DNA of 28,473 nt, from UHGV virus genome UHGV-0135791, one strand, 5' to 3'. The position numbers and the translations under genes are program-made. The notes beneath the pieces are model-generated. The model was not told where the DNA came from. It saw only the letters and a list, made by a program, of their open reading frames with translations, and did no database searches. Origin of the DNA: a virus. Each line of letters starts with the position of its first letter. The stretch's first letter is position 1. Shown here piece by piece: positions 119-20,255 of the stretch.

Positions 119-147
119 TTGCACGCTGAGATAGAATAGGCTACTAT
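119..147 (+). promoter_or_regulatory. sigma70-like early promoter, TTGCAC-N17-TACTAT
   Basis: -35 TTGCAC 119-124, 17-nt spacer, -10 TACTAT 142-147. The block AATAGGCTACTATTCA (135-150) recurs nearly identically in two minus-strand promoters. Confidence 0.45.
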
Positions 148-178
148 TCATTTACACGAACGAGAGGAGAGACAGAAG

Positions 179-2211: not shown

Positions 2212-2241
2212 ACCGTTATTAGGATAATTCCTACCCGTGGT

Positions 2242-2282
2242 ATCCTCCAGTTACTGCATACTTAATACGCACCTGGAGGATT
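2242..2282 (+). promoter_or_regulatory. stem-loop sequestering the holin Shine-Dalgarno
   Basis: 9-bp inverted repeat ATCCTCCAG (2242-2250) / CTGGAGGAT (2274-2282) with 23-nt loop; GGAGG at 2276-2280 lies in the 3' arm, 6 nt before the TTG start. Confidence 0.5.
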
Positions 2283-2286
2283 CATC

Positions 2287-2595
2287 TTGGATAAATTTAC
2301 TGAAACAGTAACGGGGTGGCTTCTCGCTGCCGCTCTGGCTGGTGGGGTCATCGGACTACGACAACATAAGTCCGTTATTTCTGGCCCTATCGACGGATTC
2401 TGCTTTATCGCAACCGGCTTCACCTGCGCCGTATTTGGCGCACCTCTCGCAGCTCAATGGTTTGGTATCACGGGCGACCGTGAAATCGCTGGCCTGGGCT
2501 TTATCATCGCTGTTCTCTGGATGCCTATCTATTCCCGTCTCTCCGGTATCGTCGCCGGAGAATACATCGCACGTCGAGGGGGTACAGATGAATGA
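2287..2595 (+). CDS. holin (putative, three predicted TMDs), TTG start
   Basis: 102 aa with three hydrophobic segments and a charged C-terminus; immediately upstream of the endolysin; no in-frame ATG near the 5' end. Confidence 0.6.
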   Translation: MDKFTETVTGWLLAAALAGGVIGLRQHKSVISGPIDGFCFIATGFTCAVFGAPLAAQWFGITGDREIAGLGFIIAVLWMPIYSRLSGIVAGEYIARRGGTDE

Positions 2596-2860
2596 GTTAT
2601 TCTGGTTCGGTGGTATGCTGGCAATCGGAGGCACATCGCTGTTTAATGTATACCATCCCAGCGTTGACGACGGGTTATTTGGTCGCGTGCTCTATATCCT
2701 GACCGCTATCATCTGCGCTGCCGGTTGTATCCACCTGTTACAAGGCAGCATGTCACCAACGTTGCCTGAGACATTAATCACATTAGTTGCGCTGCGCCAG
2801 ATTCGCCAGGCGTGGCTGTCATACGGAGGATACAAGCGTGTCTCGAAATATTTCAGATAA
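2588..2860 (+). CDS. second lysis-cassette membrane protein (holin or antiholin-like), 90 aa
   Basis: ATG 2588 overlaps the holin stop; two hydrophobic helices; ends 22 nt into the endolysin gene. Confidence 0.5.
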   Translation: MNELFWFGGMLAIGGTSLFNVYHPSVDDGLFGRVLYILTAIICAAGCIHLLQGSMSPTLPETLITLVALRQIRQAWLSYGGYKRVSKYFR

Positions 2861-3326
2861 TGGATTGCATTTCACCGCCGCGTTCGAGGGGTTCCGAGGA
2901 ACTGCATATCGTGCTACTCCGAACGAGAAGTACCTGACTATTGGCTACGGGCATTACGGGCCAGACGTAACCCCAGGTAAGACCATCACACCAGGACAGG
3001 GCTTGTTGTTACTGAATCGCGATATGGCTAAGGCCGTAGCTGCGGTTGACGCAGCAGCCCACCATTCTCTCACGCAGGCACAGTTCGACGCTGTGTGCGA
3101 CCTGGTGTATAACGCAGGTGCTGGCGTGATTGCGGCTACTACAGGCACGGGTGAGGCGCTGCGCTCCGGCGATGTTGCGACGCTGCGTGCCAAGCTGGCG
3201 CTGTTCATCAACCAGAACGGCAAACCGCTCCTCGGCCTGCGTCGCCGCACGGCTGGTCGCCTGGCGCTGTTCGACGGTAAACCGTGGCAAGAGGCAGAGG
3301 CTATTGGGCGCGCGGTGAAAGGTTGA
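2838..3326 (+). CDS. endolysin, GH24 (T4/P22 gp19-type) lysozyme
   Basis: GTG start 7 nt after ACGGAGGA; translation has the P22 gp19-like pattern (ISDNG..., IGYGH, QAQFDAVCDLVYNAG, LGLRRRTAGRLALF), matched from memory. Confidence 0.8.
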   Translation: MSRNISDNGLHFTAAFEGFRGTAYRATPNEKYLTIGYGHYGPDVTPGKTITPGQGLLLLNRDMAKAVAAVDAAAHHSLTQAQFDAVCDLVYNAGAGVIAATTGTGEALRSGDVATLRAKLALFINQNGKPLLGLRRRTAGRLALFDGKPWQEAEAIGRAVKG

Positions 3327-3392
3327 CACATAAGACTAATCCGACGATACTTAAATCACCTCCTGCTTCATCCCTCTACTCTCCAGTTTTAT

Positions 3393-3446: not shown

Positions 3447-3475
3447 TTGACTATTACATTCGACCCTACTATATT
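3447..3475 (+). promoter_or_regulatory. sigma70-like promoter, TTGACT-N17-TATATT
   Basis: -35 TTGACT 3447-3452, 17-nt spacer, -10 TATATT 3470-3475; sits just after the terminator and before a run of small genes. Confidence 0.5.
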
Positions 3476-5329: not shown

Positions 5330-5353
5330 AAGCCCTCTACGGAGGGCTTTTCT
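5330..5353 (+). terminator. putative rho-independent terminator
   Basis: AAGCCCTC / GAGGGCTT stem with TACG loop, then TTTCT. Confidence 0.45.
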
Positions 5354-5387
5354 GTACATCCCACCTAATCCCCTTATATAATCCCTT

Positions 5388-10858: not shown

Positions 10859-10886
10859 TTTAACTCCTCCTCGTTTCGATAACTGA

Positions 10887-10915
10887 ATAGTACCCTATTA
10901 TGTTGGTGTCTGCAA
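10887..10915 (-). promoter_or_regulatory. leftward sigma70-like promoter, TTGCAG-N17-TACTAT
   Basis: Read on the minus strand: TTGCAG acaccaacataataggg TACTAT tca; -10 region identical to promoters at 119-147 and 19703-19731. Confidence 0.5.
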
Positions 10916-19671: not shown

Positions 19672-19702
19672 TTTAAACCCCCTTCATTGTTGGTGTAAGT
19701 GA

Positions 19703-19731
19703 ATAGTACCCTATTATATTGGGGTGCGCAA
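19703..19731 (-). promoter_or_regulatory. leftward sigma70-like promoter, TTGCGC-N17-TACTAT
   Basis: Minus strand reads TTGCGC accccaatataataggg TACTAT tca; shares the AATAGGGTACTATTCA block. Confidence 0.5.
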
Positions 19732-19838
19732 GTAATGTGATAGAATAATTTTGCGCCTAGTGTCGCACACGAAAAGCGGGTGGTTCCCGCCTGGCGCAAC
19801 ACCATCAACCAGTAACCTCTTAACCAAAGGATTAAAGA

Positions 19839-20255
19839 ATGAAACTTTCTGATTTTTATTTCGAAGAGAAAGCACTGGTAGGTAAGAAGATGCCGATTCT
19901 CCTGCCGAATGGTGAAGACTCAGGGGAGTGGCTTAACGTTGTAAGCCCTGATGCGGATGCCGCCGTTAAAGCGGGGCGTGCTTTCATTATTGCGTACCGT
20001 CGCGGGTTGGCGCGTTTCGAAGAACTGGAAAAAGCCGCCAAAGAATCCGGCGACTATACTGAATATAACCTGGCTGTTAACGAGCTGGCGGAAGACCTCA
20101 ACCGGCAACTTGCAGCAGAAGTCGTAAACGGCTGGAGCTTTGATGAGCCTTTCTCTAAGGAAGCGTTTAACAAGTTGCTCGACCAGTTCAAGGCATTAGG
20201 CACACAGGTAGCCGCGTTCCATAACGCTGAGCGCAAAGCATTACAGGAAAAGTAG
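19839..20255 (+). CDS. tail assembly chaperone (lambda G-like)
   Basis: 138 aa acidic protein just upstream of the tape measure gene; ends ...CAG GAA AAG TAG with the -1 frame open from 20231. Confidence 0.6.
   Translation: MKLSDFYFEEKALVGKKMPILLPNGEDSGEWLNVVSPDADAAVKAGRAFIIAYRRGLARFEELEKAAKESGDYTEYNLAVNELAEDLNRQLAAEVVNGWSFDEPFSKEAFNKLLDQFKALGTQVAAFHNAERKALQEK

Follow-up and report, generated by a model that had tools for sequence, protein, structure and literature searches.

The viral DNA analysed here, UHGV virus genome UHGV-0135791 (28,473 nucleotides (nt) at its full length, hereafter the window), carries a three-gene lysis cassette (holin, holin/antiholin, endolysin), and the leader of the holin gene, which is the element under study, lies at the 5' edge of this cassette. 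Around the leader, the sequence shares 88-92% identity with numerous Escherichia phages of the genus Kagunavirus (Guernseyvirinae), and the source phage is a Kagunavirus-type siphovirus. In the leader, the Shine-Dalgarno sequence (SD) of the holin gene is found in the 3' arm of a 9-bp hairpin stem, ahead of a TTG start codon (Table 1), and the comparisons presented below suggest that this hairpin is a conserved and probably functional translational mask. The burial of the SD in the stem had been noticed in an earlier reading of the sequence (the original prediction) and stands, the two arms (2242-2250 / 2273-2281) being perfectly paired. Its numbering has to be shifted by one base: GGAGG is located at 2275-2279 rather than 2276-2280, and the spacer separating it from the TTG counts 7 nt (2280-2286) rather than 6.

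Table 1. Position of the holin leader elements and of the lysis genes in the window.
Feature	Position	Strand	Description
Extended -10-like element	2238..2246	+	TGGTATCCT (TGn + TATCCT); overlaps the start of the 5' arm; predicted +1 near A2253
Hairpin 5' arm (anti-SD)	2242..2250	+	ATCCTCCAG
Hairpin loop	2251..2272	+	22 nt, A/U-rich; would be the 5' untranslated region (UTR) of a transcript starting near 2253
Hairpin 3' arm	2273..2281	+	CTGGAGGAT; contains the SD GGAGG
Holin start codon	2287..2289	+	TTG, 7 nt after GGAGG
Holin gene	2287..2595	+	102 aa, three hydrophobic helices; phrog_2359 'holin', E = 7e-29
Second holin/antiholin gene (holin 2)	2588..2860	+	90 aa; phrog_2508 'holin', E = 8e-33
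Endolysin gene	2838..3326	+	162 aa; Pfam Phage_lysozyme, E = 1.4e-26; GTG start

The arms are 100% complementary over 9 bp, both by reading of the sequence and with a repeat finder, and the isolated hairpin folds at -14.2 kcal/mol (z = -4.6 compared to shuffles). Folding of the leader predicts complete pairing of the SD whenever a transcript contains the 5' arm: with 90 nt of upstream RNA, its probability of being unpaired, P(unpaired), is 0.002, the third lowest among 43 candidate SD and start sites of the window, for which the median is 0.37. On the same + strand, the SDs of two other likely gene starts, ATG 23625 (166 aa; P(unpaired) = 0.001) and ATG 15723 (119 aa; 0.009), are predicted to be as fully paired as that of the holin. 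Perfect inverted repeats of at least 9 bp with a loop of 3-45 nt occur 8 times in the window, compared to 4.1 +/- 2.0 expected from Markov simulations, and a 9-bp inverted repeat is by itself not beyond chance. The significance of the hairpin therefore rests on its exact position over the SD and on its conservation in relatives. A search of Rfam gave no match at the leader, neither at the gathering threshold nor at E <= 1, and an RNase III site at the hairpin was considered and rejected, the stem being too short.

Regarding the start codon, an in-frame TAA at 2263-2265 closes the holin frame upstream, while the next canonical in-frame start is the ATG of codon 79, which lies beyond two of the three holin helices. 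TTG 2287, the sole canonical start before the first transmembrane helix, is therefore the only one giving a three-helix holin. It is also the holin start in four phages annotated independently, Bas71, fTaEco03, Schulenburg, and fBC-Eco01, and the protein aligns from position 4 of the phrog_2359 profile, with conservation starting at residue 2. A dual start of the lambda S type was rejected, since the N-terminus reads M-D-K-F-T-E-T, with no Met-Lys-Met motif and with the next start at codon 79. The protein shows hydropathy maxima near residues 15, 45, and 76 and a charged C-terminus (ARRGGTDE), and the curated record of phage Schulenburg carries a TMHMM note with three predicted transmembrane domains. 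It is thus a small membrane protein with a charged C-terminus, a match to a holin profile, and an endolysin gene in its neighbourhood. The assignment as a holin made in the original prediction is hence supported by phrog_2359, by the three hydrophobic helices, and by the location upstream of a second holin gene and a lysozyme gene. No Pfam family was found for the holin, holin 2, or the 97-aa protein encoded upstream, and no experimental study of the phrog_2359 holin family was found in the literature.

Further along the cassette, holin 2 is probably translationally coupled to the holin, given that its ATG overlaps the holin stop (ATGAATGA, 2588-2595). The endolysin GTG at 2838 lies inside the 3' end of holin 2, at a position annotated identically in relatives, and is preceded by GGAGG at 2825-2829, 8 nt before the GTG; like the holin SD, this GGAGG is part of a GGAGGAT heptamer. 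These overlaps suggest translational coupling of the lysis genes along the cassette. Two of the three lysis genes use a non-ATG start (TTG for the holin, GTG for the endolysin). Upstream of the holin, the genes located between 179 and 2211 are on the same strand and tightly packed, and a scan of the + strand from 1 to 2287 found neither a terminator-like site nor a canonical promoter; in the absence of an upstream terminator, read-through into the holin is expected. Near-consensus sigma-70 promoter-like sites are found on the + strand at 3323-3351 (TTGACA-17-GATACT) and 3447-3475 (TTGACT-17-TATATT), directly after the endolysin gene, as well as at 5353-5382 (TGTACA-18-TATAAT), before the terminase small-subunit region. 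Given these sites, the lysis cassette ends a transcription unit.

Conservation of the leader in Kagunavirus

Relatives of the locus were collected from phage genomes, IMG/VR, and metagenomes, giving 73 related loci that correspond to 59 distinct haplotypes over positions -75 to +309. The k-mer protein search used here reached close relatives only (18 clusters at >=67% identity), and distant relatives were obtained by tblastn on phage genomes. Over the 59 haplotypes, the mean major-allele frequency is 0.994 in the 5' arm, 0.998 in the 3' arm, and 0.975 in the loop, compared to 0.761 at the third codon positions of the holin, where 90% of the sites are variable. In the same line, genomes that share only 74-94% identity in the holin coding sequence share 93-100% in the 70-nt leader. 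TTG is invariant in the 73 loci and also in the lineage of locus L039, whose holin is 67% identical, and GGAGG is invariant in all relatives examined. These data suggest that the leader arms and the TTG are under purifying selection, and this invariance, added to the reading frame and to the annotation of relatives, bears out the TTG start.

The few changes observed in the arms are informative. Three changes in all affect the 5' arm, A>G in L033 and both C>U and A>G in L039, and each of them pairs as G.U. L039 belongs, with L040, to the K' lineage (P0018), the most divergent holin lineage at 67% identity, in which a different 15-nt loop replaces the whole loop while GGAGG, the 7-nt spacer, and TTG are kept; both changes of its 5' arm (ATCCUCUGG) are of the G.U type. 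In Salmonella phage LSPA1, 7 loop positions are changed whereas both arms are kept and the stem is lengthened to at least 13 bp. The stem is thus maintained in diverged relatives through G.U-preserving changes, and a terminal pair is lost in the defunct leader copy of Salmonella phage VT223. Within the genus one arm is the SD and cannot vary, so double-sided covariation is not to be expected, and support for the structure was consequently drawn from the comparison across lineages presented below.

The leader is also found in varied contexts. In a subset of Kagunaviruses (for example L003, L017, L021, and RP180), a gene for an HslV-family peptidase separates the 97-aa gene from the holin leader, its insertion corresponding to about 2211-2216 of the window, and the leader is unaltered from about TATTAGGATAAT on. 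Phage fTaEco03 (L002) carries a 299-bp tandem duplication (888-1019 and 1187-1495) of the leader and the 5' part of the holin; its first copy codes for a 43-aa truncated product annotated 'putative antiholin/holin', and a comparison of both leaders over 150 nt showed no difference. In VT223 (L037, 1988-2240), a Kagunavirus-type leader with a 48-aa holin remnant precedes Jersey-type holins, while LSPA1 (L038, 515-690) shows the reverse order, a Jersey-type leader with a remnant followed by a Kagunavirus-type leader and holin. In both hybrid lysis cassettes, the leaders mark recombination junctions.

Such contexts are what would be expected if the inverted repeat acted at the DNA level, as a recombination linker or a palindromic protein-binding site, with no RNA role and a merely coincidental complementarity to the SD. 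The leader indeed joins different upstream modules (the 97-aa gene or the HslV-family peptidase gene), it is tandemly duplicated in fTaEco03, and it stands at the junction of the hybrid cassettes of VT223 and LSPA1; besides, the loop is conserved within the genus as well, and a 9-bp inverted repeat alone is not rare. However, the arm changes give G.U pairs, which keep the RNA structure but not the DNA symmetry and therefore argue for an RNA structure over a DNA palindrome. In addition, the 3' arm always coincides with the SD, and five other lineages have a stem of unrelated sequence in this very position, where compensatory changes are seen. A purely DNA-level feature is, for these reasons, considered highly improbable.

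Unalignable leaders ahead of homologous holins

Members of the same holin family were found by tblastn in Dhillonvirus (about 45% identity), in Jerseyvirus (24%, pairwise E = 4e-8), and in several Serratia and Pantoea phages. The leaders of these homologues have no sequence alignable with that of the window, yet their layout is mostly common. In the Jersey type (J), a -10-like TG[T/C]TAATCT overlaps ATCTCCGAAGG ... CTTTCGGAGAT, which is followed by a T6-7 run and a GTG start, the stem pairing TCTCCGAAGG with CTTTCGGAGA. The J' type has TG[A/C]TAA[T/C]CT, the arms CTCCGTATGG ... CCTATACGGAG, no T-run, and an ATG start; A-U>U-A and G.U/U-A swaps set its stem apart from that of J and also occur between J' members. 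In the Dhillon type (D), TGATATAGT overlaps AGTCCCAGTGAG ... CTTACTGGGACT, followed by a T6-7 run and ATG; D' shares TGATATAGT, the T-run, and the ATG, and differs from the D stem by one additional C in the 5' arm, for which an A>G change in the 3' arm compensates. The Tsm2/Otaku leaders (aGtTATACT, GCCTCGG ... CTGAGGC, ATG) and the Scapp/Smarc4 leaders (cGcTAATCT, GGCCCC ... GGGGCT, TTG) are both devoid of a T-run. In each of these six types, a purine-rich SD is located in the 3' arm. Two Pantoea phages depart from this scheme: LIET2 has a terminator, a perfect TATAAT, 31 nt, and a GTG with no hairpin, and MED16 a terminator, TGcTATCGT, and then a hairpin with the SD in its loop.

The accessibility of the SD was predicted for 10 lineage representatives. 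In all of them, P(unpaired) is 0.00-0.03 in long transcripts, compared to 0.19-0.75 in transcripts beginning at the predicted +1 (see below). Taken together, these data suggest that the hairpin of the window is the local form of a boundary element seen across the holin family. Besides the hairpin, an A/U-rich 'ACTTAA'-like motif recurs 8-15 nt upstream of the SD in these otherwise unalignable leaders, in the forms ACTTAAT, ACTTAAAT, CTTAAAC, AACTAAC, and AACTTAC (window 2258-2266; loops or 5' UTRs of L112, L117, L114, L062, and L043). The UAACUUU of the Jersey type resembles the 'epsilon' enhancer of T7 gene 10.

The comparison across lineages also bears on a transcriptional role, in which the hairpin would be a weak or residual terminator, or an attenuator, that lowers the flow of polymerase into the lysis genes, the burial of the SD being incidental. 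The J and D hairpins do score as intrinsic terminators, with a G+C-rich stem of 12-13 bp, a 6-nt loop, and a T6-7 run, touching the start codon, and the Dhillon and Jersey hairpins reach about -18 to -20 kcal/mol; the position homologous to that of the window hairpin is thus occupied by a canonical terminator. K' (L039) moreover retains a U-rich tail (UUUAUUUU), and the stem of LSPA1 extends over 13-17 bp with a short loop. In the window, by contrast, the loop counts 22 nt, the tail UUCAUCUU is a broken U-tract (TTCATCTT), the terminator scan is silent, and the 3' arm serves as SD for the following gene, which starts within 7 nt. A role limited to transcription would furthermore leave unexplained the constant SD in the 3' arm and the invariant TTG, and the J' and Tsm2 hairpins are without any U-tract. 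That the window hairpin acts mainly on transcription is accordingly judged improbable; as its U-tract has decayed to UUCAUCUU, translational masking is what would remain.

A candidate promoter and the proposed masking of read-through transcripts

An extended -10-like element, TGGTATCCT, overlaps the start of the 5' arm and is a candidate promoter of the lysis cassette. The 9-bp stem does not include three of its bases, T2238, G2239, and T2241, of which the last two are invariant; T2238 is altered only in the remnant copy of VT223. Position 2240, the 'n' of the motif, varies between G and C, matching the extended -10 pattern TGnTATCCT, in which TG occupies -15/-14 and T-12, A-11, and T-7 are conserved. 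TGnTAnnnT is found over or just before the 5' arm in the Kagunavirus type (K) and in K', J, J', D, D', and MED16, while Tsm2 and Scapp show G-n-TAnnnT, with only the G at -14, and LIET2 a perfect TATAAT at the same distance. Like the hairpin, its position over the SD, and the TTG, this conserved element is seen directly in the compared sequences. In the window, TG.TA...T at that distance from a start is found at 0.8% of random positions and at 1 of the 43 candidate gene starts. Given this 0.8% background, a motif that returns in four or more leaders, none alignable with another, is not due to chance. The J and D terminators leave no space for a promoter ahead of the start codon, so that any dedicated lysis promoter of these types would have to lie within the hairpin. 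When the +1 is set seven bases after the hexamer (A2253 in the window), it coincides in every lineage with the distal end of the 5' arm, and the implied 5' UTRs measure 24-34 nt. Transcripts with such a start would consequently be devoid of the inhibitory strand.

Two other promoter candidates were discarded. A -10 in the loop (TAATAC) would place the transcription start within the SD, and L039 does not conserve the loop; the repeat motif TGAATAGTACCCTATTAT, which the fBC-Eco01 paper calls 'phage promoters', does not occur in the leader. This motif, 20 nt long and partly palindromic (TGAATAGTA(C/G)CCTATTAT), is present in 3 copies in the window (129-150 on the - strand, 10884-10903 and 19700-19719 on the + strand) compared to 0.23 expected, and the fBC-Eco01 paper lists seven such 'phage promoters', identified with PHIRE. 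It has the appearance of an operator that overlaps a -10 (TATTAT) and precedes the operon ending in the lysis cassette as well as two structural-gene blocks, and these three units may therefore be co-regulated. About 30 nt downstream of the third copy, and just upstream of an open reading frame at 19839, an Rfam int-alpA RNA match is found at 19750-19814 on the + strand (36.7 bits versus a gathering threshold of 35.8, E = 2.7e-4).

The reading favoured here, to which a probability of roughly one half is given, is that the hairpin works as a boundary or gating element of the type described for T4 gene e, by which read-through mRNA is masked and a short mRNA is translated. More precisely, transcripts reading through from the operon at 179-2211 would carry both arms, and the -14 kcal/mol stem would bury GGAGG, so that these RNAs would yield no holin and, through coupling, no product of the lysis genes further downstream. 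A weak extended -10 sigma-70 promoter (TGGTATCCT), overlapping the 5' arm, would in turn start transcripts about 7 nt downstream, near A2253, which would lack the 5' arm, possess a 34-nt A/U-rich leader, and have their SD largely unmasked. A strong SD combined with a weak TTG codon would then result in weak translation and slow accumulation of the holin, whose dosage would depend on the weak promoter and on the weak TTG behind a strong SD. Given that holin 2 overlaps the holin stop and that the endolysin GTG lies inside holin 2, the hairpin gate would probably control all three genes through translational coupling. Termination and masking together would shield the cassette from upstream transcription in the J and D types, and masking alone in the window. 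We infer from these sequence features that the promoter is active, where transcription starts, and how translation and lysis timing would be affected.

Several points weigh against this reading. Regarding the promoter, a sigma-70 scan requiring a -35 element finds no site at the leader in the window, L043, or L062, TATCCT matches 4 of the 6 positions of the -10 hexamer, which is modest, and the CCT of this hexamer is fixed anyway by its complementarity to the SD. Regarding the mask, the SD of the short transcript of the window is still predicted to be 81% paired, with codons ~13-17, in an alternative fold that is not significant (z = -1.4). Within the Kagunavirus type, double-sided covariation is absent, the covariation test giving a result indistinguishable from shuffles, and a U>C change in the 3' arm of L107 gives an A.C mismatch, the sole stem break found ahead of an intact holin. 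Recombination that spread a single copy could account in part for the near-identity of the entire leader and its loop, since different upstream modules, duplications, and hybrids all share this leader. Finally, no transcription start-site maps or lysis-gene studies of Kagunavirus, Jerseyvirus, or Dhillonvirus were found in the literature, and in the only transcriptome of the subfamily, that of K1B4, the lysozyme gene belongs to a broad 'middle' class, at a resolution too coarse for the leader (PMC12645636).

The original prediction had proposed a simpler scheme, in which a non-ATG start and a sequestered SD restrain holin translation and tune lysis. With no internal promoter, every holin mRNA would contain both arms, initiation would occur only when the stem breathes, and the stem together with the TTG would hold holin synthesis low and set the lysis time. 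The hairpin, the burial of the SD, and the invariant TTG are all real, the lack of a terminator in the upstream operon makes a read-through mRNA expected, and no -35 element was found at the leader, nor a convincing one in Scapp between a separate terminator and the hairpin. Such a permanent brake is also in agreement with the co-expression of the K1B4 lysozyme gene with replication and structural genes, and with the lysis time of lambda being set by the holin translation rate (bioRxiv 10.1101/2025.05.14.654169). Nevertheless, it leaves unexplained the TGnTA that lies outside the stem and is kept in unalignable leaders. Moreover, the D and J terminator stems at the start codon imply almost no translation from read-through, yet these phages lyse. 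In the quantitative work of de Smit and van Duin, a -14 kcal/mol stem over a 5-nt SD is reportedly expected to cut initiation by orders of magnitude, a loss that seems excessive for an essential gene already provided with a TTG. The pattern of the boundary-element family and the conserved -10-like element thereby favour the masking of read-through transcripts only over a uniform restraint, which is plausible but considered less likely. Of the scheme first proposed, the SD burial and the TTG stand, while a throttling of all holin mRNA is probably too simple.

Related systems and biological meaning

The closest known system is gene e of phage T4, to whose anatomy the -10-like element over the 5' arm and the SD in the 3' arm of the window correspond point for point. 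In T4, the long early transcripts form a helix that buries the SD and the start, masks the ribosome-binding site (RBS), and are translated about 100-fold less, whereas late promoters located in the 5' strand of the helix give rise to open, translatable transcripts (PMC3014915). T4 soc, gene 49, and I-TevI follow this design too (McPheeters et al. 1986; for a review, see PMC3014915). Some differences have to be pointed out: gene e encodes an endolysin, while the gene concerned here is a holin, the first of the three cassette genes; the T4 late promoter TATAAATA needs gp55/gp33/gp45, while the candidate promoter here is a host sigma-70 extended -10; and the window has a TTG start and a hairpin that doubles as an intrinsic terminator in sister lineages.

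The S gene of lambda is likewise a holin gene with an upstream stem-loop, located over the Met1 SD, controlling ribosome access to the SD. However, that stem-loop divides initiation between two in-frame AUGs (S107/S105), giving antiholin and holin, whereas the window has one start and a longer and stronger stem, and the two holins are unrelated in sequence. Since the window holin contains no dual-start motif, the analogy is not fully applicable. Gene 13 of P22 has an arrangement similar to that of lambda S.

Extended to the holin family as a whole, the features described above could form a three-in-one module common to Guernseyvirinae, Dhillonvirus, and the Scapp-like siphoviruses, a proposal that is tentative. 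It would combine a hairpin that terminates or masks, with an extended -10 promoter in its 5' arm and an SD in its 3' arm, and would insulate the holin dosage from upstream transcription, thereby giving control to one weak dedicated promoter. With this module, virulent phages lacking a late-transcription machinery would have evolved or retained the logic of T4 gene e in a form that relies on the host polymerase.

While the trick used by the T4 lysozyme gene is already known, it would here be found in a new phage group, and no description of this holin leader was found in the literature searched. In terms of annotation, terminators predicted directly before these holin genes should be considered with caution, since they overlap the RBS and probably a promoter too. 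Lysis timing is a main phage fitness trait, and the scheduling of holin synthesis is little studied in Kagunavirus, Jerseyvirus, and Dhillonvirus, even though these genera are widely used as candidates for therapy and biocontrol. If the proposed mechanism is true, the stem, the TTG, and the -10 would constitute a simple mutable handle for tuning the latent period as well as burst size. It would also explain how the lysis genes can end an early or middle operon without early killing of the host, and would indicate that the T4 design of a masked read-through and an open proximal transcript works with ordinary host promoters.

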